A stretch of DNA of 64,000 nt from an uncultured Lachnospiraceae bacterium (GTDB lineage: Bacteria; Bacillota; Clostridia; Lachnospirales; Lachnospiraceae), in NCBI GenBank assembly GCA_900551115.1, contig URUY01000014.1, positions 14,140-78,139 on the forward strand. The letters are read 5' to 3'. The notes under the pieces are model-generated. The model did no database searches and was not told the origin of the DNA. It saw nothing but the letters and a program-made list of their open reading frames with translations. The number at the start of each line of letters is the position of its first letter. Position 1 is the first letter of the stretch. Positions 1 to 24,909 of this stretch are shown here, piece after piece. The position numbers and the translations under genes are program-made.

Positions 1-494
1 ACAATGTCATACAGGCGTTCCTTCAGCTTATCCATATACAGCAGATCTCCCATCCGAAGCGCTTTTTTCATATACTTATCCGCATAAACCGGAGAAATCC
101 CTCTTCTGGTAGAACCAAACTTCTTATCCAGCAGCCGGTCCTCCTCCAGACAATCAAGCAATTTATGATAGGGCATGCAGATAGTTGCCCTGTCACTGAT
201 TTTTAAGTGTTCCTTTGTGACGGCAATGCCTTTTTCTTTCAGCTTCTCTGCCTCGCCGTACAAATGCTCCAAATCAATTACCATTCCCGGTCCTAATATA
301 TTCACTGTTTTTTCTCTGCATATACCGGAGGGCATCAGATTCATAACAAACTTCCCTCTTTCATTAATCACGGTATGCCCTGCATTGTTTCCGCCCTGAT
401 AACGTACCACAATATCATATTTTTCACTTAAAAGGTCAACCATACGGCCTTTTCCTTCATCTCCCCAATTCGTTCCAACGATTGCTGTCAGCAT
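1..494 (-). CDS. purA: adenylosuccinate synthetase, N-terminal part (gene runs off window start)
   Basis: Minus-strand translation MLTAIVGTNWGDEGKGRMVDLL...GGNNAGHTV matches the PurA P-loop/GDP-binding N-terminus. ATG at 492-494 is preceded by AAGGAGAGAG RBS. Not in ORF track because truncated. Confidence 0.85.
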   Translation of the reverse strand, partial: MLTAIVGTNWGDEGKGRMVDLLSEKYDIVVRYQGGNNAGHTVINERGKFVMNLMPSGICREKTVNILGPGMVIDLEHLYGEAEKLKEKGIAVTKEHLKISDRATICMPYHKLLDCLEEDRLLDKKFGSTRRGISPVYADKYMKKALRMGDLLYMDKLKERLYDI

Positions 495-508
495 ATTTTC
501 TCTCTCCT

Positions 509-1942
509 TTAGACATTAATTTCTGCGTCAACACCGGTACGGCTGCTTTCCTTAAGCATAGGCAATACGGTTTCTGAAATGTACCTTTCGCACTGATGCT
601 CTGCCATACCTGTAAACTTTAAGGGATTCAAAAGCGTTTTCATTTCCTCCTCACTTAAATGAAAGCTTTCATCCGCCCGGATTCGCTCAAGCAGGTCATT
701 CTCTTTTCCATACAGCTTCACCTGTTCTGCCGCTTTTACGGCGTGTCTGCGAATTGCTTCATGCAGCACCTGTCTGTCGCCGCCCTTTTCCTTTACGCAG
801 TACATCAGGATATTTTCTGTAGCCATAAAAGGAAGCTCTTCCTCTAAATGTTTTTTTATGACTGCCGGATATACCTTCATGCCCCGCACAATATTGATAT
901 ACAGATTTAAAACGGCATCCGTTGCCAGAAATGCCTCCGGTACGGAAAGCCTTTTATTCGCCGAATCATCCAGGGTTCTTTCAAACCATTGGGCTGAGGC
1001 CGTAATTGCCGTATTCTGCAAATCACATATGACATATCTGGAAAGAGAGGCTATTCTTTCACTTCTCATGGGATTTCTTTTGTAGGCCATTGCGGAAGAG
1101 CCTATCTGCTTTTCTTCAAATGGCTCGTCAACCTCCTTCAAATGACTGAGCAGCCTGATATCATTTGAAAATTTGGCTGCACTTTGCGCAATCCCCGAAA
1201 GAACCTGTAAAACAGCAAAATCAGCTTTTCTTGTATAGGTCTGTCCGCTGACGCTTTGACATTTAGAAAAGCCGATTTTTTCCGCTATCTTCTGCTCTAA
1301 CAGCACCACCTTTTCTTCATCGCCCTCAAACAGTTCCAAAAAACTGGCGCCGGTCCCTGTAGTTCCCTTGCAGCCTAACAGCTTTAAATTATGTAACTGA
1401 AAATTGATTTGCTCCAAATCAAATATAAGGTCATTTATCCAAAGACAGGCACGTTTCCCCACGGTAGTCGGCTGCGCTGCCTGAAAATGAGTAAAACCAA
1501 GCGTCGGAAGGGCTTTGTAACGCATTGCAAAGTCACTGAGCGCTTCCACTGCATTCAATAAAAGATTCTTAATCTGTAATAACGCTTCATGCATCAGGAT
1601 AACATCCGTATTATCACCTACATAACAGGAGGTCGCCCCCAAATGGATAATACCGGCAGCCTTAGGGCAGGCATCTCCAAAGGTACGCACATGAGCCATC
1701 ACATCATGTCGCAGCTCCTTTTCATACTCTGCTGCTTTTTCATAATCAATATGCGCCGCATGCAGCTTCATTTCTTCTATCTGTTCCTCTGTTATGGGAA
1801 GTCCCAATTCCTTTTCGCTTTCAGCAAGAGCTATCCACAGCTTTCTCCATGTATAAAATTTCTTATCGCTTGAAAAAATATGCTGCATCTTTTTGCTTGC
1901 ATAACGCTCACAAAGAGGTGATTCATAAATGTCTGTTCTCAT
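509..1942 (-). CDS. purB: adenylosuccinate lyase
   Basis: 477 aa ORF with a typical PurB/fumarate-lyase family sequence. ATG start has a GGAGGAAG RBS and overlaps the purC stop (ATGA), indicating operon coupling. Confidence 0.9.
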   Translation of the reverse strand: MRTDIYESPLCERYASKKMQHIFSSDKKFYTWRKLWIALAESEKELGLPITEEQIEEMKLHAAHIDYEKAAEYEKELRHDVMAHVRTFGDACPKAAGIIHLGATSCYVGDNTDVILMHEALLQIKNLLLNAVEALSDFAMRYKALPTLGFTHFQAAQPTTVGKRACLWINDLIFDLEQINFQLHNLKLLGCKGTTGTGASFLELFEGDEEKVVLLEQKIAEKIGFSKCQSVSGQTYTRKADFAVLQVLSGIAQSAAKFSNDIRLLSHLKEVDEPFEEKQIGSSAMAYKRNPMRSERIASLSRYVICDLQNTAITASAQWFERTLDDSANKRLSVPEAFLATDAVLNLYINIVRGMKVYPAVIKKHLEEELPFMATENILMYCVKEKGGDRQVLHEAIRRHAVKAAEQVKLYGKENDLLERIRADESFHLSEEEMKTLLNPLKFTGMAEHQCERYISETVLPMLKESSRTGVDAEINV

Positions 1943-2664
1943 TCTCCTGCTTCCTCCATCTTCAGTCCGATTCTTTTTGCCACAGCTATGTATGCCTCTT
2001 CCACGTTTCCCAAATCTCTCCTGAACCTGTCCTTATCCATCTTCTCATTGGTTTCCGCATCCCAAAGCCTGCATGTATCCGGGGATATCTCATCTGCCAA
2101 AATGATTTTTCCCTGAAAACGTCCGAATTCAATCTTAAAATCTATCAGCTTCAGGCCTGCTTTTAAAAACTCCGCTTTTAAAAGCTCATTTATCCGGAAT
2201 GCATATTCCTTAATGGTTTCCAATTCCTCTGCAGTGGCAAGCCCAAGCGCCTTTGCAAAATAGCTGTTGATAAGAGGGTCTGAAAGTTCGTCATTTTTAT
2301 AAGAAAACTCTATGGTTGGTTCAGAAAATGCAAGACCTTCCTCAACCCCCAGCCGCTTGGAAAAGCTTCCTGCCGCCGCGTTCCTCACAATTACCTCCAG
2401 CGGTACAATTGTCACTCTTTTCACAGCAGTCTCCCTGTCATTCAGCTCCTTGATAAAATGGGTGGGAATTCCGTTCTCCTGCAATATTTGAAACAAGTAA
2501 TTGGTCATGCGGTTATTGATTGCACCTTTTCCCGCAATCCTGCCTTTTTTCAGACCGTTAAAGGCCGTTGCATCATCCTTGTAGGAAACAATGAGTACCT
2601 CCTCATCTTCTGTTAAAAAAACCTTCTTTGCCTTGCCTTCATAAAGCTGTTCACCTTTTTTCAT
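1939..2664 (-). CDS. purC: phosphoribosylaminoimidazole-succinocarboxamide (SAICAR) synthase
   Basis: SAICAR synthetase family sequence (…YEGKAKKVF…VIVRN…). Start moved from the ORF-track start to internal ATG (MKKGEQLYEGKAKKV) at 2664, which has a GGATGAGGAG RBS 7 nt upstream. Confidence 0.85.
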   Translation of the reverse strand: MKKGEQLYEGKAKKVFLTEDEEVLIVSYKDDATAFNGLKKGRIAGKGAINNRMTNYLFQILQENGIPTHFIKELNDRETAVKRVTIVPLEVIVRNAAAGSFSKRLGVEEGLAFSEPTIEFSYKNDELSDPLINSYFAKALGLATAEELETIKEYAFRINELLKAEFLKAGLKLIDFKIEFGRFQGKIILADEISPDTCRLWDAETNEKMDKDRFRRDLGNVEEAYIAVAKRIGLKMEEAGE

Positions 2665-2704
2665 CTCTGACTCCTCATCCCTTTTTTTAATAATTCTTAA
2701 CAGC

Positions 2705-2760
2705 ACAAAAAAAGACAAAGGGTCTCTAAGAAAAATTTCTTAAAGACGCCTTTGCCTTTA
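2705..2760 (-). promoter_or_regulatory. leader attenuator: conserved P1 hairpin (AAAGGC-AAAGGC-GUCUUU, hexaloop A1/G4) overlapping a long intrinsic terminator + U7
   Basis: mRNA sense UAAAGGCAAAGGCGUCUUUAAGAAAUUUUUCUUAGAGACCCUUUGUCUUUUUUUG. The 5' 18 nt form a 6-bp stem with a hexaloop. An alternative >20-bp hairpin followed by U7 reuses the P1 3' arm. Confidence 0.6.
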
Positions 2761-2767
2761 CCCGAGT

Positions 2768-2796
2768 ATAGTACACCTATACGGTATAAATGTCAA
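2768..2796 (-). promoter_or_regulatory. sigma-A type promoter (TTGACA-17-TACTAT) driving the purC leader
   Basis: Minus-strand TTGACAtttataccgtataggtgTACTAT. Predicted TSS about 7 nt downstream, immediately before the conserved P1 hairpin. Confidence 0.6.
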
Positions 2797-2878: not shown

Positions 2879-4459
2879 TTACTTCCCGCTATCTCCATAA
2901 TTTGACAATACCCGTGCAGACGGGTCGTTTACATTGCATCCTTCCCATTCTTTATTTGGCATCCAGAAATCAATTATCATTTCCGCCTGTCCCGGATAGT
3001 ATTTTTCAAAAATTTCGCGATATGCCAGGGATTCTTTTGTAAATGGCCTTGCAAAATCATATTTCTTACATCCCTCCTCAAATTCCTCATCCGAGTACAG
3101 CTTCTCCGCATAGTCTTTCAAATAGTCCACCATAGAGTGTCCTACTGCATCCGAAAATGCCGCTTTTTCCCGATAAAGTATTTCATCAGGGAGATAATCA
3201 CCCTTGAACGCATATCTTAACAAATATTTTCCTTTCCCATAGATATTACGTTTTTTCTCCGGGTCGATTGCCATAACATACTTCACAAAATCCAAATCCC
3301 CGAACGGTACTCTTGCTTCCAGGGAATTTACAGATATGCACCTGTCAGCTCTCAGTACATCATACATATGCAATTCCCTGATTCTTTTACAGGCTTCCTT
3401 TTGAAAGGCTTCTGCGTCCGGTGCAAAATCAGTATATTTATATCCGAATAATTCATCTGAAATTTCACCGGTCAATATTACCCTGATATCCGTAGATTCG
3501 TGGATTGCCTTACAAATAAGATACATACCCATACTTGCCCGTATTGTTGTAATGTCATAGGTTCCGAGCAATGCAATGACTGTTTCCAGTGCTGAAAGCA
3601 CATCCTCTTTCGTGATGATAACCTCGGTATGCTCACTGCCGATATAGTCCGCTACCTGCTTTGCATACTTTAAATCAATGGCATCCTCGCTCATTCCGAT
3701 TGCAAATGTCTTAATCGGCTCTTTGCTCTTCTTTGCAGCAATCGCACATACCAGCGAGGAATCCAGTCCGCCGGAAAGTAAAAATCCAACCTTTGCATCT
3801 GCTACCAGTCTCTTTTCCACACCGGCAACAAGCTTATCATGTATGTTTTTGCATATCGTTTCCAAATCATCACAAATCACTTCATCTACCCGGGTCATAT
3901 CTCTGTAACAAATGAACTTTCCGGCTTTATAATAATGTCCCGGCGGGAACGGCATTACCTTATCCACTAGCTGCACCAGGTTTTTAGGCTCACTTGCAAA
4001 ACAGATGACTCCGTTCCTGTCATACCCGTAATACAAAGGCCTGATGCCAATCGGATCCCTTGCCGCAATGTATTCTCCGCTTTCACCATCATATACTATC
4101 AATGCATATTCTGCATCGAGCATGGAAAACATTTTTATTCCATACTCTCTGTACAGCGGTAACAGAATCTCGCAGTCGCTGTCGCTTTTAAATGAATAGC
4201 CCTTTTGCGTAAGCTGCTTTTTTAAGCCTTCAAATCCATAGATTTCTCCGTTACATACTATATAACTGCCATCAAGCTCAAACGGTTGCATTCCTTCCTC
4301 TGTAAGCCCCATAATAGCAAGTCTGTGAAAGCCTAAAAAGCCTTTGCCTGTATCGATAATCCTGGAATCATCAGGACCTCTTGAAATTGTTTTTTCAAAC
4401 CCCTTCTTAAATAACTCCAAAGTGGCGCCATGACCACAAAATCCCATAATAGAACACAT
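2879..4459 (-). CDS. asnB: asparagine synthase (glutamine-hydrolysing)
   Basis: 526 aa. N-terminal MCS… (Ntn amidotransferase Cys2). SGGLDSS PP-loop motif. ATG with GGAGGA RBS. Confidence 0.9.
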   Translation of the reverse strand: MCSIMGFCGHGATLELFKKGFEKTISRGPDDSRIIDTGKGFLGFHRLAIMGLTEEGMQPFELDGSYIVCNGEIYGFEGLKKQLTQKGYSFKSDSDCEILLPLYREYGIKMFSMLDAEYALIVYDGESGEYIAARDPIGIRPLYYGYDRNGVICFASEPKNLVQLVDKVMPFPPGHYYKAGKFICYRDMTRVDEVICDDLETICKNIHDKLVAGVEKRLVADAKVGFLLSGGLDSSLVCAIAAKKSKEPIKTFAIGMSEDAIDLKYAKQVADYIGSEHTEVIITKEDVLSALETVIALLGTYDITTIRASMGMYLICKAIHESTDIRVILTGEISDELFGYKYTDFAPDAEAFQKEACKRIRELHMYDVLRADRCISVNSLEARVPFGDLDFVKYVMAIDPEKKRNIYGKGKYLLRYAFKGDYLPDEILYREKAAFSDAVGHSMVDYLKDYAEKLYSDEEFEEGCKKYDFARPFTKESLAYREIFEKYYPGQAEMIIDFWMPNKEWEGCNVNDPSARVLSNYGDSGK

Positions 4460-4579: not shown

Positions 4580-6310
4580 TTATTCCACATCCTGAAGGGC
4601 ATCATATCCCTCTTCACCGGTACGCACCTTCACAACATTTTCCACATCATATACAAATATCTTACCGTCTCCGATGTGTCCGGTATAAAGAACCTTCTTT
4701 GCCGTTTCGATTACCTTTCTTACAGGCACCTTACTTACAACAATATCAACCTGTACCTTAGGAAGAAGGTTTGTCTCTACAGGTGCGCCACGATAATATT
4801 CCGGCTTACCCTTCTGCACTCCGCAGCCAACTACATGGGATACCGTCATACCTGTAATTCCAAGTTCGCTCATGGATTTCTTCAGAGCCTCCAGCTTAGC
4901 TTCCTTACAGATAATCTGCACTTTGCTGAGTTTGGGAATACCTTCTGTTTTTTCAGTTTCTTTCTTCACAGGAACAGCCTCTGACATCGTATCTTCCTCA
5001 ACCGGATTAGAAACAGCAGCTTCCGCATCCTCAGTATATTTCTCCATAGAGATTACAAAATCAGGATAAGCCATATTTCCATGTTCACCGATATCCAAAC
5101 CGGCAATCTCTTCTTCTGCTGATACTCTGATTCCGACAGTCGCCTTGAGTGCCAGCCATACAAGGGAAGAAGTAATAAATGCAAACGCACCAACAGCTAC
5201 AATACCGACCAGTTCTACTAAAAGAAGCTCAGCTCCGCCACCGTAGAACAAACCATTTCTTGTTGAAAGAGTTGTAACCCCTTCTTTTGCAAACAAACCA
5301 ACACAAATTGTACCAAAGACGCCACAGCACAGATGTACGCTTGTCGCACCAACGGGATCATCGACTTTAATCCGGTCAAAGAACATTACTGCAAATACTA
5401 CGATAACACCTGCAATTGCGCCGATAATCAGCGATGCCTCTACGGTAACATATGCGCAGCTTCCGGTTATTCCTACCAGTCCGGCCAGACATCCGTTTAT
5501 TGTCATGCCTAAATCCGGCTTTCCGAGGAAAATCCATGCAACTGCCGTTGATGTAACAACTGCTGCGATAGCAGAGGTATTTGTTGTCATCAGAATATGC
5601 ATAACATCTGCCGGGTTCTGAAAGCTCATGGTAGAACCGGGGTTAAAGCCAAACCATCCAAGCCAAAGCACAAATAAACCAATTACTGCCAATGACATAT
5701 TATGTCCCGGAATCGCACGAGGCTTTCCGTCCTTACCATACTTACCGATACGAGGTCCTAAAATCAACGCTCCTGACAAAGCTGCCCATCCACCAAGTGA
5801 ATGCACTACCGTATCACCTGCAAAATCCATAAATCCAAGATTGGCAAGCCAGCCGCCGCCCCATACCCAGTGTCCTATAACCGGATAAATGAATAAGGTG
5901 AGTACAAAGGAAAATATAATAAAGGAAATATATTTTACTCTTTCTGCAACTGCACCGGATACAATTGTTGCTGCAGTCCCGCAGAATACTAACTGAAAGA
6001 AGAATTTTCCCCAAAACGGTACATTGGAAGTCAATGTATTGTCATAAAAGGAATGGTCTTCTGTTCCGAGAATAAACAGGTGCTGTGTTCCTATAAATGG
6101 ATTATCACCGCCAAACATCAGTCCCCATCCCAGTAATATGAATCCCAAAGATGATACCGCAAATACAATAAAATTCTTTGACAGAATGTTTACCGTATTT
6201 TTTGACCTTGCCATACCTGCTTCTACGGAGGCAAAACCGAGATTCATGAAAAACACCAGGATTGCTGCAAGAAATACCCACACTGTATCGATAATCATTT
6301 CTACTGTCAT
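4580..6310 (-). CDS. amtB-glnK: ammonium transporter AmtB fused in frame to a C-terminal PII (GlnK/GlnB) domain
   Basis: N-terminal ~430 aa are an 11-TM Amt family sequence (…GGWLANLGFMDFAGDTVVH…). A ~50 aa acidic linker follows. The C-terminal ~105 aa are a PII fold (GITGMTVSHVVGCGVQKGKPEYYRGAP…IGDGKIFVYDVENVVKVRTGEEG). No stop separates the two. The ORF track begins at TTG 6319; the likely real ATG is at 6310 with a GGAAAGAGG RBS. Confidence 0.8.
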   Translation of the reverse strand: MTVEMIIDTVWVFLAAILVFFMNLGFASVEAGMARSKNTVNILSKNFIVFAVSSLGFILLGWGLMFGGDNPFIGTQHLFILGTEDHSFYDNTLTSNVPFWGKFFFQLVFCGTAATIVSGAVAERVKYISFIIFSFVLTLFIYPVIGHWVWGGGWLANLGFMDFAGDTVVHSLGGWAALSGALILGPRIGKYGKDGKPRAIPGHNMSLAVIGLFVLWLGWFGFNPGSTMSFQNPADVMHILMTTNTSAIAAVVTSTAVAWIFLGKPDLGMTINGCLAGLVGITGSCAYVTVEASLIIGAIAGVIVVFAVMFFDRIKVDDPVGATSVHLCCGVFGTICVGLFAKEGVTTLSTRNGLFYGGGAELLLVELVGIVAVGAFAFITSSLVWLALKATVGIRVSAEEEIAGLDIGEHGNMAYPDFVISMEKYTEDAEAAVSNPVEEDTMSEAVPVKKETEKTEGIPKLSKVQIICKEAKLEALKKSMSELGITGMTVSHVVGCGVQKGKPEYYRGAPVETNLLPKVQVDIVVSKVPVRKVIETAKKVLYTGHIGDGKIFVYDVENVVKVRTGEEGYDALQDVE

Positions 6311-6340
6311 ATTAATCAACCTCTTTCCTGTAATAAAATT

Positions 6341-8437
6341 TTATTTTACACCAAACAAAATTTCTCCGTAGGTCGGGAACGGCCAGTAGTCTGCTGCCGT
6401 AATTACCTCTGCCTCATCCGCTACAGCTCTAAGCTCCTGCATTTTCACAAGAACCTTGTCTCTGATGGCAGCTGCTTCTTCCAAAATACCATTCGTCTCC
6501 TTCAGGCTCATAACTGCCTTTTCCAATTCCGATATCTTTGTATCAATCTGCTCGGCAATTACGGAAAGCTTTGAAACCATTTTCTTTTCATAGGTACATG
6601 TAATGTCACCTGAAAGCGACTTCTTTGCAACAGCCACATTTGCCAGTTCTAAAGCATAGCCCTCTACAGCAGGCAGAATCTGTTTTCTTGCCATATCCAC
6701 CATTGTATTTGCTTCAATGGTGACTGACTTACAATAGTTCTCAAGCATAATATCACATCTTGATTTAAGCTCTGCTTTGGTAAATACCTTATGTTCTGTG
6801 AGCATCTTCACATTCTTCTCATCCAATAGATGCGGCATACAGTCTACCGTGGTACGATAATTCAACAAGCCTCTCTTCGTTGTGGCTTCCGTAATCCATG
6901 ACTCGTCATATCCGTTTCCGTTAAAGAGAATATGCTTATGGTCTTTGATGGTTTTACGAATCATTTCATGAAGCGCCGTTTCAAAGTCTTCCACACCTTC
7001 CAATCTGTCCGCATATACCTTCAGGCTTTCAGCAACTGCACTGTTTAACATAATATTTGCACAGGAAATGCTGTTGGATGAGCCAAGCATTCTGAACTCA
7101 AACTTATTTCCCGTAAAGGCAAACGGTGAAGTACGGTTACGGTCTGTATTATCTCTTGCAAACTTGGGTAATACATCAACTCCCAGCTTCATGGTAGTTG
7201 TTTCTGTACCCTTATAAGGTTCGTTCTTTTCAATGGCTTCCAGAATTGCAGTAAGCTCATCCCCAAGGAAAATGGATACCACTGCCGGAGGCGCCTCATT
7301 TGCTCCGAGTCTATGGTCATTACCTGCTGTTGCAACAGACAGTCTGAGTAAATCCTGATAAGTATCAACTGCCTTAATGACTGCACAAAGGAATAATAAG
7401 AACTGTGCATTTTCATAAGGTGTTTCGCCGGGTGAAAGAAGGTTTACACCTGCATCCGTTGCAATCGACCAGTTATTGTGCTTGCCGCTTCCGTTTACAC
7501 CTGCAAAAGGTTTTTCATGTAAGAGGCATACCAGACCATGCTTTGCAGCAATCTTCTGCATGATTTCCATTGTCAGCTGATTATGGTCTGCTGCAATGTT
7601 AGTAGTTGCATAAATCGGTGCCAGCTCATGCTGTGCAGGAGCAACCTCGTTATGCTCTGTTTTTGCCAGCACGCCGAGCTTCCACAGCTCCTCGTTTAAT
7701 TCTTCCATATATGCTGCCACTCTGGGCTTAATTACACCAAAGTAATGATCATCCAGTTCCTGTCCTTTGGGTGGCTTTGCACCAAAGAGCGTACGTCCTG
7801 TGAACATTAAATCCTTACGCTTTTCATACATTGCTTTGTCTACAAGGAAGTACTCCTGCTCAGGTCCTACCGATGTTCGGACACATTTCACTTCATCATT
7901 TCCAAATAAATGAAGGATTCGCAATGCCTGACGATTCAAAGCCTCCATAGAACGAAGTAACGGCGTTTTCTTATCCAATGCCTCTCCGCCATAAGAACAA
8001 AATGCAGTAGGGATACATAAGGTTTTACCTTTGATAAACGCATAAGAGGTAGGGTCCCATGCGGTATAGCCTCTTGCTTCAAAGGTAGCTCTTAACCCGC
8101 CCGAAGGGAATGAGGATGCATCCGGTTCTCCCTGAATCAATTCCTTACCGGAAAACTCCATTAATACTCCGCCATCCGGTGACGGAGAGATAAAGCTGTC
8201 ATGCTTTTCTGCCGTAATGCCGGTAAGCGGCTGAAACCAATGTGTATAATGTGTTGCGCCCTTATCAACTGCCCAGTTTTTCATTGCCTCTGCAACAGCA
8301 TTTGCTACAGATAAATCAAGGGTCGCTCCTTCATCAATCGTCTTTCTTAATGACTGATATACCTTTGCTGAAAGCTTTGCCTTCATTACTCTGTCATCAA
8401 ACACCAGGCATCCAAAATAATCATCAATTTTTTTCAT
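6341..8437 (-). CDS. glnN: glutamine synthetase type III
   Basis: ~700 aa GSIII-family sequence. Start set at internal ATG (MKKIDDYF) with AAGGAGG RBS 7 nt upstream. Only 30 nt separate its stop from amtB, so likely a glnN-amtB/glnK-asnB operon. Confidence 0.85.
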
Positions 8438-8443
8438 AACAAT

Positions 8444-8570
8444 CCTCCTTGTTTTTGCGAAGCAAAAATCCGAACCCCATGTGAGGAGAGGATTTGCCTC
8501 CTTGTTTTTGCGAAGCAAAAATCCGAACTCCCACGTGAGGAGAGGATTTGCCTCCTTGTTTTTGACTATC
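8444..8570 (-). repeat. tandem direct repeat, 2.3 copies of a ~53-nt module in the glnN 5'UTR
   Basis: CCTCCTTGTTTTTGCGAAGCAAAAATCCGAAC…GTGAGGAGAGGATTTGC repeated at 8444, 8497 and partially at 8551, with ~97% identity. In RNA sense each copy carries AAGGAGG paired to CCUCUCCU plus a UUUUUGC-UUC-GCAAAAA hairpin. Confidence 0.8.
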
Positions 8571-8571
8571 T

Positions 8572-8624
8572 ATAAGAGAAAAGCGCCTTTAATGTTTAAA
8601 AACATTAAAGACGCCATTGCCTTC
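8572..8624 (-). promoter_or_regulatory. leader attenuator upstream of glnN: P1 hairpin (GAAGGC-AAUGGC-GUCUUU) overlapping a 15-bp intrinsic terminator
   Basis: mRNA sense GAAGGCAAUGGCGUCUUUAAUGUUUUUAAACAUUAAAGGCGCUUUUCUCUU. Terminator stem GCGUCUUUAAUGUUU/AAACAUUAAAGGCGC followed by a U-tract. Confidence 0.6.
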
Positions 8625-10061: not shown

Positions 10062-10116
10062 AACAAAAAGGGCAATGGGGCTCTAAGAATAAATTCTTAA
10101 AGACGCCATTGCCTTT
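10062..10116 (-). promoter_or_regulatory. leader attenuator upstream of gdhA: P1 hairpin (AAAGGC-AAUGGC-GUCUUU) overlapping an intrinsic terminator + U5
   Basis: mRNA sense AAAGGCAAUGGCGUCUUUAAGAAUUUAUUCUUAGAGCCCCAUUGCCCUUUUUGUU. The GGCAAUGG/CCAUUGCC and CUUUAAGAA/UUCUUAGAG stems covary relative to the other copies. Confidence 0.65.
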
Positions 10117-10125
10117 ATGTTGTCG

Positions 10126-10154
10126 ATAATACACCTAACAAAAATCATTGTCAA
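10126..10154 (-). promoter_or_regulatory. sigma-A type promoter (TTGACA-17-TATTAT) for the gdhA leader
   Basis: Minus-strand TTGACAatgatttttgttaggtgTATTAT. TSS predicted 2-3 nt before P1. Confidence 0.65.
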
Positions 10155-16249: not shown

Positions 16250-16316
16250 TTTCTGTTAAAAAAGGCAAAGAAATCTCTAATGCACATAATTGCATGAAAG
16301 ACGTCTTTGCCTTTTA
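16250..16316 (-). promoter_or_regulatory. second (promoter-distal) attenuator in the gltB leader: P1 hairpin (AAAGGC-AAAGAC-GUCUUU) overlapping a long terminator + U6
   Basis: mRNA sense AAAAGGCAAAGACGUCUUUCAUGCAAUUAUGUGCAUUAGAGAUUUCUUUGCCUUUUUUAA. Confidence 0.6.
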
Positions 16317-16344
16317 ATATTCAGATACCTTACATATTCCCTTT

Positions 16345-16393
16345 GAAACAAAAGGCACCTTTAAGAGCTTCCCCTTAAAGACGCCATTGCCTT
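16345..16393 (-). promoter_or_regulatory. first (promoter-proximal) attenuator in the gltB leader: P1 hairpin (AAGGC-AAUGGC-GUCUU) overlapping a 12-bp terminator + UUUUGUUU
   Basis: mRNA sense UUAAGGCAAUGGCGUCUUUAAGGGGAAGCUCUUAAAGGUGCCUUUUGUUU. Confidence 0.65.
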
Positions 16394-16403
16394 AATGGTA
16401 TGA

Positions 16404-16432
16404 ATTTTATATCCAGGATTACCAATTGTCAA
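16404..16432 (-). promoter_or_regulatory. sigma-A type promoter (TTGACA-17-TAAAAT) for gltBD
   Basis: Minus-strand TTGACAattggtaatcctggataTAAAAT. TSS predicted ~3 nt before P1. Confidence 0.65.
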
Positions 16433-16538: not shown

Positions 16539-16567
16539 TTGACATTCTGGTAACTTGCGTTTAGAAT
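16539..16567 (+). promoter_or_regulatory. sigma-A type promoter (TTGACA-17-TAGAAT) for glnA-nitR
   Basis: Plus-strand TTGACAttctggtaacttgcgttTAGAAT. Confidence 0.6.
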
Positions 16568-16574
16568 CTTTTGT

Positions 16575-16631
16575 GAGCAAAGGCGTTCATTTAATTCAGA
16601 AACCATATTTCTGTTACAATGGACGTCTTTA
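16575..16631 (+). promoter_or_regulatory. glnA leader with divergent P1-like hairpin (GAGC-AAAGGC-GUUC, A1/G4 hexaloop) plus a second degenerate motif copy (CAAUGGACGUCUUUA)
   Basis: GCAAAGGCGU core and downstream CGUCUUUA are shared with the four minus-strand leaders. A CAGAAA/UUUCUG hairpin lies between them. No strong terminator seen. Confidence 0.45.
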
Positions 16632-16680
16632 TTCGTTCCGTAGCCAATGCCAATAAATATACGAGAAAGCAGGTGCCGCA

Positions 16681-17892
16681 ATGAAATATACCCAAAATGA
16701 AGTAATGCAGTTTGTGGAAGAAGAAGATGTAAAATTCATCAGACTGGCATTTTGTGATGTTTTTGGAAAACAGAAAAATATATCCATCATGCCCGATGAG
16801 CTAAACAGAGCCTTTGAACAGGGAATTGCCATCGATGCATGGTCTATTGCCGGGTTTGACAGCCATTTGCACTCAGACTTGTTTTTATATCCTGACCCTT
16901 CCACTCTTGTTATCCTGCCGTGGCGTCCGGAACATGGCCGTGTGGTAAGAATGTTCTGCGATATCAAATGGCCGGACGGCAGCGTTTTTCTCTGCGATAC
17001 CAGACAGCTTCTCAAAAAAGCCATTGCCGATGCCGCAGAAAAAGGTGTCTTTTTTCAATTTGGTTCAGAAATGGAATTCTATCTTTTTAACAGGGATGAA
17101 CTGGGCAATCCCACTGCCATCCCTTACGACCAGGCAGAATATATGGACATTGCTCCGGACGATAAAGGTGAGAATATCAGACGTGAGATATGCCTTACCT
17201 TAGAGCAGATGGGTATATCGCCTGAAAGCTCCCATCATGAAGAGGGACCCGGACAAAATGAAATTGATTTTAGATATTCCGACCCTTTATCCGCAGCAGA
17301 CAATGCCGTTACTTTTGCTGCCGTTGTAAAAACCGTTGCAAACCGCAACGGAATTTATGCCTGCTTCAATCCGAAACCACTGGAAAATGCACCGGGAAAC
17401 GGAATGCATATTAACTTCTCCATCAAAGATGATACTGATGCAGAGGCGTTAAATCATTGCCTTGCCGGTATATTAAAATATATTCCTGATATGACACTTT
17501 ATCTAAATCGCTGCATAGATTCTTATAAACGCCTGGGAAATAACAAAGCGCCCGGCTTTATAACCTGGTCTGCCGAAAACCGCTCCCAGCTGGTTCGTAT
17601 CCCTGCCGCCTCCGGTATATACAAACGGGCAGAGCTTCGTTCTCCCGACCCTATGGCTAATCCCTACATTGCTTATACACTTTTGATTTATGCGGGACTG
17701 CTTGGCATAGAGGAGAAGCTTCCGCTTCCTCCCGCAGCAGACATAAATCTGTATACTGCTCCGAAAGATATTTTAAATCAGTATACCCACCTTCCCAAAA
17801 CCTTGGAAGAGGCAAAGACAATAGCCAAAAACAGCCTGTTCATCAATTCCATCCTGCCTGCGCAGATTACCGAAGCATATTGCAGGATATAA
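16681..17892 (+). CDS. glnA: glutamine synthetase family protein (short type-I-like)
   Basis: 403 aa with GS beta-grasp N-domain and catalytic motifs (…GNGMHINFS…, …ENRSQLVRIP…). Confidence 0.8.
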   Translation: MKYTQNEVMQFVEEEDVKFIRLAFCDVFGKQKNISIMPDELNRAFEQGIAIDAWSIAGFDSHLHSDLFLYPDPSTLVILPWRPEHGRVVRMFCDIKWPDGSVFLCDTRQLLKKAIADAAEKGVFFQFGSEMEFYLFNRDELGNPTAIPYDQAEYMDIAPDDKGENIRREICLTLEQMGISPESSHHEEGPGQNEIDFRYSDPLSAADNAVTFAAVVKTVANRNGIYACFNPKPLENAPGNGMHINFSIKDDTDAEALNHCLAGILKYIPDMTLYLNRCIDSYKRLGNNKAPGFITWSAENRSQLVRIPAASGIYKRAELRSPDPMANPYIAYTLLIYAGLLGIEEKLPLPPAADINLYTAPKDILNQYTHLPKTLEEAKTIAKNSLFINSILPAQITEAYCRI

Positions 17893-17916: not shown

Positions 17917-18510
17917 ATGCCCATGCCTTTTAAAGAATATATATACAGTGTTTTGATAGTATCATCATCCGAAACCTTTAATACTTCCTTTACGGCACTG
18001 CTGCCCCAGAAAGATTACGCCCCTGTAGATATTGTCCAAAGCATAAATCACGCAAGGCGGAAAACAGCAGAAAGAGCTTATGACCTTGTCATAATAAACA
18101 CGCCGCTGCCGGACGATTTCGGCAGAAAATTTGCTATTGATATCTGCGAAAACAGGCATACGGTTGCCGTACTTTTTGTAAAAAACGATATATATGATGA
18201 AACCTATGCAAGGGTTCTGGAGCATGGTGTTTTAACCTTGCGCAAGCCGACCTCCGCTTCCATTATAAATCAGGCGCTTGATTGGATGCGTGCAATCAGC
18301 AAACGGCTTGGAAAGCTTGAAAAAAAGACCCTGACATTAGAAGAAAAAATGTCCGAAATCCGAATTGTCAACCGTGCAAAGTGGGCGCTTATCGAATCCT
18401 GTAATATGACAGAAACCGACGCCCACAGGTACATAGAAAAGCAGGCCATGGATCGCTGCCTTACAAAAGGAGAAATCGCGGAAGGCATCCTGCAGACTTA
18501 TAAATCATAG
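17917..18510 (+). CDS. ANTAR-domain RNA-binding antiterminator with atypical receiver domain (NitR/AmiR-like)
   Basis: C-terminal ANTAR signature (…EIRIVNRAKWALIESCNMTETDAHRYIEKQAMDRCLTKGEIAEGIL). N-terminal CheY-like fold in which the phospho-acceptor position reads LVIIN (Asn, not Asp). glnA followed by an ANTAR regulator is the classical clostridial glnA-nitR arrangement. Confidence 0.8.
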   Translation: MPMPFKEYIYSVLIVSSSETFNTSFTALLPQKDYAPVDIVQSINHARRKTAERAYDLVIINTPLPDDFGRKFAIDICENRHTVAVLFVKNDIYDETYARVLEHGVLTLRKPTSASIINQALDWMRAISKRLGKLEKKTLTLEEKMSEIRIVNRAKWALIESCNMTETDAHRYIEKQAMDRCLTKGEIAEGILQTYKS

Positions 18511-24390: not shown

Positions 24391-24909
24391 CTAATTTCTG
24401 TATTTCAACCTTATTCTGTCTGCAATCAGAGCTATAAATTCGGAATTGGTCGGCTTTCCTTTTCCCGTATTGATTGTATACCCAAACAGAGCGTCTAAGG
24501 TCTCCATTCTTCCTCTGCTCCATGCCACCTCAATGGCATGCCGGATAGCCCTTTCCACACGGCTTGGTGTAGTCCCGAATTTCTTTGCAATGGTGGGATA
24601 CAGGATTTTGGTAATGGAACTGAGCATGGAATTGTCCTCCACCGCCATCATAATGGATTCCCTCAAATACTGGTATCCCTTGATATGTGCCGGCACGCCG
24701 ATTTCATGTATCATATCCGTCACATCCTGCTCCAAATCCCGCTCTTCTGTCCTTTTTACTATCTCTGCGCTGTTTTTTGCCTGAATCTCCTTTTTTCCGG
24801 AGGGTACTGTAATCATAATCTGAAATTCCTTGTCGGTACTCATCAGCTGACCGATTATTTTGTACAGTTTTTCATTATCTTTGGTAGTCAACACGTTAAG
24901 CTGTTCCAT
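24391..24909 (-). CDS. spo0A: Spo0A homologue with an internal deletion of most of the receiver domain (DNA-binding Spo0A_C intact)
   Basis: Residues 1-40 align with the start of the Spo0A receiver ([15 protein letters not shown]… vs B. subtilis MEKIKVCVADDNREL…). Residues ~65-172 are a near-canonical Spo0A C domain ([20 protein letters not shown]…[21 protein letters not shown]…KPTNSEFIA). The region holding Asp56 and the linker is absent. ATG with GGAGG RBS. Confidence 0.8.

Follow-up and report, generated by a model that had tools for sequence, protein, structure and literature searches.

A promoter and a putative ANTAR (NitR)-type transcription attenuator before a clostridial purC operon

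In Bacillota, end-product control through riboswitches, PurR or PyrR is the usual description for pur and pyr genes, and a purine (G-box) riboswitch or a PurR/PurBox site is the customary cis-element before purC-type operons, located at this same place in the 5' leader or promoter. In an initial annotation of the 64-kb stretch of DNA analysed here (the window), a purC operon was read as lacking these elements and as standing instead behind the promoter and P1/terminator module of the nitrogen genes gdhA, gltB and glnN. The question raised by the locus was which signal controls purC, and by what device.

Purine control elements were absent from the region before purC in all scans made. At gathering score, Rfam gave no match anywhere in the 64-kb window, including the purine riboswitch RF00167; a permissive Rfam scan of 2560-2960 returned only non-specific hairpins (SpF43 and miRNA models) far below thresholds, with no RF00167 at E <= 10. 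The B. subtilis-type PurBox AWWWCCGAACWWT had no match in 2665-2880, and its matches across the window numbered 40, with 42 expected by chance. The E. coli PurR operator had 0 matches in the window, and none in 2665-2880. The Rfam, PurBox and E. coli operator scans thus bore out the absence of a purine riboswitch or PurR box from 2665-2880. Unlike in operons with a purine riboswitch or PurR, neither element was present at this purC, and the operon would answer to nitrogen status in place of purines.

Read on the minus strand, the region between asnB and purC contained a promoter, a small hairpin and an intrinsic terminator:

2879-4459, minus strand: asnB (NCBIfam equivalog score above cut-off)
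2791-2796, minus strand: -35 hexamer TTGACA of the purC-operon promoter (promoter scan)
2768-2773, minus strand: -10 hexamer TACTAT, 17 nt after the -35 hexamer and 9 nt (about 10) before the hairpin (promoter scan)
2743-2758, minus strand: P1, 16 nt, 5-bp stem and hexaloop, AAGGC[AAAGGC]GUCUU (folding, and stem covariation between leader classes)
2711-2759, minus strand: full intrinsic terminator stem-loop, ~22 bp (folding and covariation)
2722-2747, minus strand: apical part of the terminator, GUCUUUAAGAAA-UUUU-UUCUUAGAGAC (sequence varies and covaries between leaders)
2705-2713, minus strand: terminator U-run UUUUUUUGU, with U7 at 2713-2707 (sequence and folding)
2758-2707, minus strand: hairpin/terminator sequence AAGGCAAAGGCGUCUUUAAGAAAUUUUUCUUAGAGACCCUUUGUCUUUUUUU within the asnB-purC spacer
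2671-2676, minus strand: purC ribosome-binding site GAGGAG, 30 nt after the U-run (read from the sequence)
1939-2664, minus strand: purC, SAICAR synthetase, 241 aa (TIGR00081, 258.6 bits, cut-off 189.9)
509-1942, minus strand: purB, adenylosuccinate lyase, 477 aa (TIGR00928, 375.8 bits, cut-off 326.2)
1-494, minus strand: purA, 5' part, running off the window end (Pfam Adenylsucc_synt)

The order purC-purB-purA downstream of asnB, as initially annotated, was supported by TIGR00081, TIGR00928, the asnB equivalog and Pfam Adenylsucc_synt. The promoter was of the sigma-70 type (TTGACA-17-TACTAT, 2796-2768) and was among the top promoter-scan matches; the four best matches in the first 18.6 kb lay before gltB, gdhA, purC and a divergent GS-like gene. 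The purC transcript was predicted to start 2-4 nt 5' of P1. The P1 RNA (22 nt, GGUAAAGGCAAAGGCGUCUUUA) carried the hexaloop AAAGGC, with A at position 1 and G at position 4. Folding energy was -27.8 kcal/mol for the terminator (z = -7.7; 0/200 shuffles as good) and -5.0 kcal/mol for P1 alone, and with P1 weak against a strong terminator, termination was taken as the default. The segment GGCGUCUU of P1 was at the same time the base of the terminator 5' arm, so that the two folds were mutually exclusive. Attenuation by a leader peptide was considered and rejected, as the roughly 55-nt leader upstream of the terminator held no ORF. Further downstream, a five-codon mini-ORF (ATG AGG AGT CAG AGA TGA; 2662-2678, minus strand) spanned the purC ribosome-binding site, its stop overlapping the purC ATG; it has probably arisen by chance.

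The same module was present at the nitrogen genes of the window. The 17-mer AAGGCAAWGRCGTCTTT had five exact copies in 64 kb (2758-2742, 8623-8607, 10115-10099, 16313-16297 and 16393-16377), all on the minus strand, which is the sense strand, and before purC, glnN, gdhA and gltB (two, in tandem). With up to 3 mismatches, 8 matches were observed against a mean of 0.77 in shuffles, and no shuffle reached 8. The genes and leaders were arranged as follows:

16257-16432, minus strand: gltB promoter with two tandem leader modules (promoter scan, 17-mer, covariance model)
16228-11687, minus strand: gltB
11667-10189, minus strand: gltD
10064-10154, minus strand: gdhA promoter with a leader of the same type (promoter scan, 17-mer, covariance model 53.7 bits)
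10000-8642, minus strand: gdhA
8576-8623, minus strand: attenuator of the same type between gdhA and glnN, without a promoter of its own (17-mer, covariance model 55.7 bits)
about 8437 to 6341, minus strand: glnN, type III glutamine synthetase
4580-6319, minus strand: amt-glnK fusion, one 579-aa ORF

A covariance model (R1) built from 63 leaders scored the purC leader at 60.4 bits (E = 1.6e-12) and matched the window solely at nitrogen-related leaders. The five exact 17-mers and the covariance model together confirmed that purC shares its promoter and P1/terminator module with gdhA, gltB and glnN, as had been claimed, with coordinates correct and on the minus strand. The working glutamine synthetase appears to be the type III enzyme (glnN). 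asnB was the last gene of the upstream glnN-amt/glnK-asnB unit, and its read-through transcripts also meet the purC attenuator.

Several other features of these genes and of the window were recorded. The fusion of the ammonium transporter with the PII protein GlnK recurred in many related loci. Between the glnN attenuator and the glnN start (about 8565-8440, minus strand) a 53-nt unit was present in two copies in the window and in one copy (4150-4230) in a metagenomic contig of 151 kb, L121; the unit carried a copy of the glnN ribosome-binding site and an inverted repeat, GCAAATCC/GGATTTTTGC, and the real glnN start was the ATG near 8437, not the TTG at 8518. From 21057 to 48972 the window was ordinary clostridial chromosome (a murJ-like gene, glgA, a GH35 beta-galactosidase with sugar ABC permeases, an AraC-type response regulator with its kinase, spoIVB, recN, argR, nadK, an FtsJ-like methyltransferase, dxs, ispA and xseA), with no further pur genes or leader copies. 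Within it, a 172-aa protein (24391-24909, minus strand) consisted of a Spo0A C-terminal DNA-binding domain without a receiver domain, and no receiver was encoded upstream in another frame.

Across relatives, every cell of the P1 stem paired in 22 distinct hairpin variants, most of which had been gathered with a filter demanding pairing, so that the P1 covariation test was partly circular; a promoter-anchored search without that filter returned the hairpins of class B (described below), all fully paired. The loop consensus was AAWGRC (variants AANGNN), with A1, A2, G4 and the closing C-G pair invariant in the 22 variants. In the terminator, 90% of cells were paired in the 63 leaders, with 129 double changes against 41 +/- 6 in shuffles, and loop positions W and R covaried with the terminator 3' arm. 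The apical part was free in sequence and length with its pairing kept, a U-run always followed, and the 17-mer with the following UUU was conserved in sequence.

A promoter of the layout TTGACA-17-TAnnnT preceded 37/63 leaders, and the distance from the -10 hexamer to the motif was 8-11 nt in all 37 (mode 10). With the promoter ending 8-11 nt before the motif, the RNA would begin almost directly with the hairpin, leaving no room for another one upstream. The other 26/63 leaders had no nearby promoter and were internal attenuators inside operons, like the one between gdhA and glnN. A second ANTAR hexaloop was sought in the apical loops, which measured 3-10 nt; hexaloops made up 16/63 and the A1/G4 combination occurred in 2/63. 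Judged by sequence, the leader is of a single-hexaloop design.

A candidate regulator pair was encoded divergently from gltB, behind a leader of a second class:

16539-16640, plus strand: promoter (16539-16567), class B leader UGAGC[AAAGGC]GUUCA and terminator, before the GS-like/ANTAR operon
16681-17892, plus strand: GS-like protein, 403 aa, GSI-alpha type, shorter than catalytic GS, divergent from gltB
17917-18510, plus strand: NitR-like protein, 197 aa, with a pseudo-receiver and an ANTAR domain (PF03861, 52.6 bits)

The nearest matches of the GS-like protein were GS of the B. subtilis type, among them the chain from the crystal structure with TnrA; it largely kept the catalytic motifs and was about 40 residues shorter. 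By analogy, it is a candidate nitrogen/glutamine sensor and sequestering partner. The best solved relative of the NitR-like protein was the antiterminator Rv1626. At the phospho-acceptor position (CheY D57), Asn was found in 19/20 NitR-like homologues and His in 1, and the D12/D13 acidic pair was absent; the protein is accordingly classed, from its residues, as being of the pseudo-receiver type. The class B leader had a loop identical to that of the target-gene leaders, with 3/5 stem pairs changed compensatorily; at 16574 it was missed by model R1 at E <= 1 and was found by a hairpin scan and by the promoter-anchored scan. Its presence before the regulator operon suggests autoregulation, with two classes of site. 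ANTAR/GS-like genes were located within 8 kb of the motif in about 25 of the about 64 clostridial loci listed, and at 0 of the chance matches in other phyla.

The recognition signature of ANTAR proteins consists of a hexaloop with A1/G4, a conserved closing pair and a 3' half lying in the terminator 5' arm, and the classical target has two tandem hexaloop hairpins with a short linker (Ramesh et al. 2012, PMC3369931). In the EutV-RNA structure paper, the minimal ANTAR site was a single hexaloop with G4, whose natural action was left open, and both hairpins were needed for antitermination by EutV in vitro (Walshe 2022, PMC8934654). The purC leader had the A1/G4 hexaloop, the overlap with the terminator and the single hexaloop with G4, and lacked the tandem second hexaloop. 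As in EutV/eut of Enterococcus faecalis, NasR/nasF and AmiR/amiE, an A1/G4 hexaloop, a closing pair and terminator overlap were combined with a nearby ANTAR gene and with nitrogen genes. Unlike in these systems, one hexaloop was conserved instead of two, the purC-type hairpin was 5'-terminal (2-4 nt from the predicted start), and the stem and its 3' flank (the 17-mer) were conserved in sequence. The single conserved hexaloop, against two in the classical target, counts against an ANTAR reading. Nucleotide-biosynthesis genes, as found behind the leader here, are absent from published ANTAR target lists, and the literature searched yielded no link between pur, pyr or amidotransferase genes and ANTAR or NitR. 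P1 is proposed as an ANTAR binding site, and the NitR-like protein as the putative antiterminator acting on it.

For NitR of C. saccharobutylicum, antitermination at GS/GOGAT genes has been reported when nitrogen is limiting (Stutz 2007, cited in PMC6316151 and PMC4676874). According to the available text of these sources, its cluster is glnA-nitR-gltAB, which is matched here by an ANTAR gene directly after a glnA-type gene and adjoining GS/GOGAT genes, with gltBD divergent. Unlike in the cluster as given in that text, the glnA-type gene here was shortened (403 aa), with the type III glnN apparently the working GS. The same available text (PMC6316151, PMC4676874) defines no RNA target for NitR and reports no purine or pyrimidine genes in its regulon. 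AmiR and NasT are pseudo-receiver ANTAR proteins controlled by sequestration on a sensor, AmiC and NasS, respectively (PMC3795266). As in AmiC-AmiR and NasS-NasT, a receiver-like domain without a phosphorylation site was adjoined here by a candidate sensor gene; unlike in those pairs, the partner was a GS homologue and not periplasmic-binding-protein-like, its interaction with the NitR-like protein being suggested by adjacency.

The region 2705-2796 is probably a promoter followed by a protein-dependent ANTAR (NitR)-type transcription attenuator, by which nucleotide-synthesis genes would be brought into the nitrogen regulon. Transcription would start 2-4 nt before AAGGC[AAAGGC]GUCUU. By default, the nascent RNA would refold into the 22-bp terminator with its U7, and the polymerase would stop after about 55 nt, before purC. 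An active NitR-like ANTAR protein would capture the hexaloop hairpin as it emerges and thereby sequester GGCGUCUU, the base of the terminator 5' arm; the remaining RNA could then form no more than a short apical hairpin, well away from the U-run, and the polymerase would read into purC-purB-purA-pyrG-purF-carA-carB. Because the receiver lacks the phospho-acceptor Asp, NitR activity would probably be set by binding to the adjacent GS-like protein, acting as glutamine/nitrogen sensor, a pairing that would parallel AmiC-AmiR, NasS-NasT and the GS-TnrA pair of B. subtilis. At low nitrogen-donor pools, the enzymes that spend Gln/Asp nitrogen on nucleotides would be co-induced with ammonia uptake and assimilation. 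Nitrogen-status regulation of the purC operon is suggested by the anatomy, the context and the literature on C. saccharobutylicum NitR; we also infer the binding of NitR to P1 and the direction of the response.

The genes placed behind this leader extended well beyond those visible in the window. The initial annotation had described a compact overlapping operon of three genes. Only purC and purB overlapped, by 4 nt; purB and purA were 14 nt apart, and the operon comprised at least 7 genes and extended beyond the window, as purC-purB-purA-pyrG-purF-carA-carB. This order was read on L121, which encodes exactly the same PurC, differs from the window by one 53-nt repeat unit while being otherwise 100% identical to it, and has operon gaps of <=30 nt. 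In a close relative (L125; PurC 80% identical) the order was purC-purB-purA-guaA-pyrG-purF-carA. Aspartate is the nitrogen source for PurC and PurA, with PurB completing both reactions, and glutamine is the nitrogen source for PurF, PyrG, GuaA and CarAB. The operon is thus composed of those steps of nucleotide and arginine precursor synthesis in which aspartate or glutamine is the nitrogen donor. The original rationale, an aspartate-consuming AMP branch, proved too narrow: pyrG, purF and carAB are glutamine-dependent, and relatives add guaA, glmS and gatCAB.

Other readings of the leader were weighed against the attenuator described above. The hairpin could be bound by a non-ANTAR factor (the GS-like protein, a PII protein or a small ligand on the RNA), and the operon would then be nitrogen-responsive without depending on ANTAR. 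Such a factor would suit the conservation of only one hexaloop, where classical ANTAR targets have two, and of the whole 17-mer plus UUU, beyond what the A1/G4 loop rule needs; it was nevertheless considered improbable, with the A1/G4 hexaloop and conserved closing pair matching the ANTAR signature exactly and an ANTAR gene adjacent, with its own leader variant. For a small ligand in particular, a hairpin of 16 nt leaves no space for a metabolite pocket and Rfam returned no riboswitch; a protein-free riboswitch at P1 is unlikely. There is very little chance that the module is the plain terminator of asnB, with an unrelated, constitutive purC promoter and a likeness due to the common shape of terminators. 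Although it is a canonical intrinsic terminator downstream of asnB, the promoter sits between the asnB stop codon (2879) and the hairpin, which places the terminator inside the purC transcript; an identical 17-mer, occurring at five window sites and across dozens of genera with a constant spacing of 8-11 nt to the -10 hexamer, would not be expected of an ordinary terminator, and the covariance model matched only nitrogen-related leaders. Equally remote is a DNA operator at which a repressor bound just past the start site acts as a roadblock, with no role for the RNA. The 17-mer and inverted repeat do form such a repeat in the DNA, at about +3 to +50, but their orientation was strictly that of the sense strand and G-U pairs, which exist in RNA only, were numerous (18/22 variants at P1 pair 4, with GU/UG frequent along the terminator). 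The free variation of the apical part with pairing kept, the constant U-run and the 26/63 copies inside operons without a nearby promoter also speak against an operator.

A further reading concerns the genes and not the hairpin. Since pyrG, purA and purB are normally essential, their position behind a tight default-off terminator is puzzling if they are single copies, and basal read-through must be assumed: if these are the only copies, either termination has to be leaky or the regulator has to work during ordinary growth on ammonia. The puzzle would be eased if purC-carB were a second, nitrogen-limitation-specific set of isozymes, with housekeeping copies elsewhere under purine/pyrimidine control. 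This was regarded as rather unlikely. PurC and PurB scored as ordinary equivalogs and were 68-81% identical to the housekeeping-like purC-purB(-purF)-purA clusters of relatives without the leader, and the 64-kb window and the adjoining 8 kb contained no other pur genes.

An exact scan for the 17-mer over one genome per species (596 Gb) gave at least 120 loci, with about 280 chance matches expected; among the matches listed, about 64 clostridial loci had the full hairpin-terminator anatomy, and the remainder were chance matches in other phyla. The clostridial carriers belonged to dozens of genera and included Lachnospiraceae, Oscillospiraceae, Christensenella, Emergencia and Acetatifactor. Among the matches listed, the leader stood before glnN in 32 loci and before gdhA in 12, and also before amt-glnK, gltB and asnB. 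It stood directly before purC in L017, L061, L064, L077, L079, L089 and L124-L127, before pyrG in L029, L099 and L109, before purF in L028, and before guaA in L003, L018 and L110. Leader-controlled operons elsewhere in Clostridia also held carAB, glmS (L003), gatCAB-purA-purB (L010), ilvE (L100), dapF-dapL (L016) and a sodium/glutamate symporter (L036); with the leader before glmS, gatCAB and ilvE, the regulon would reach cell-wall precursor synthesis, tRNA amidation and transamination. Among the ORFs annotated in leader-controlled operons, no pur gene without nitrogen transfer was seen. The apparent common theme of the targets is consumption of the nitrogen donors Gln and Asp.

The presence of the leader at orthologous purC clusters, a point raised by the initial annotation, was thus observed in the ten loci with a leader directly before purC, but not in 76/80 of the closest purC loci. 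Of those 80 metagenomic loci (PurC identity 68-81%), the leader was present in 4, the four closest (79-81%), and the count was the same from a structure-aware scan and from the covariance model. The remaining 76/80 had purC-purB(-purF)-purA behind ordinary promoters, and the purine riboswitch was absent in 9/9 leader-less purC loci checked with Rfam. A leader common to all purC orthologues was rejected on this count of 4/80 loci. More distant lineages (PurC 66-68% identical) did carry the leader, and with the leader present there and missing in 76/80 of the closest loci, the purC operon has been recruited or lost repeatedly. In L150, L158, L162, L170 and L196, which have purC without the leader, a conserved inverted repeat, ACAAGGCAGAGGGAA-N8-TTCCCTCTGCCTTGT, overlapped the purC promoter about 60-110 nt upstream, with the -35 hexamer in its loop and TATTATAAT directly after; it may serve in a different kind of control or may terminate transcription of the gene upstream.

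These findings suggest that nitrogen status, and not purines, governs the nitrogen-consuming steps of nucleotide synthesis. ANTAR antitermination is known; what appears new, as far as sequence comparison goes, is the single 5'-terminal hexaloop, the pseudo-receiver regulator and the nucleotide-synthesis targets. A wider proposal is made tentatively, with confidence a little short of even: a global clostridial nitrogen-donor regulon in which a GS-like sensor would hold a non-phosphorylatable ANTAR protein which, set free, would attach to a single 5'-terminal hexaloop and antiterminate ammonia uptake and assimilation together with nearly all enzymes that spend Gln/Asp nitrogen (asnB, purF, purC/A/B, guaA, pyrG, carAB, glmS, gatCAB and aminotransferases). 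Over short evolutionary times, this regulon would gain and lose essential operons, and purC-carB would be one recruit, with its genes present as sole copies.

If true, a block of precisely the Gln/Asp-nitrogen steps would follow nitrogen status through an RNA-binding antiterminator and not through end products. It would be a case of natural antitermination by a single ANTAR hexaloop, a possibility raised in PMC8934654, and would provide a likely RNA target for the long-known, poorly defined NitR system. The patchy distribution of the leader is a natural experiment in the rewiring of essential operons, and the regulon, if true, would give a view of how nitrogen-donor supply and demand are balanced in abundant gut and rumen Clostridia.
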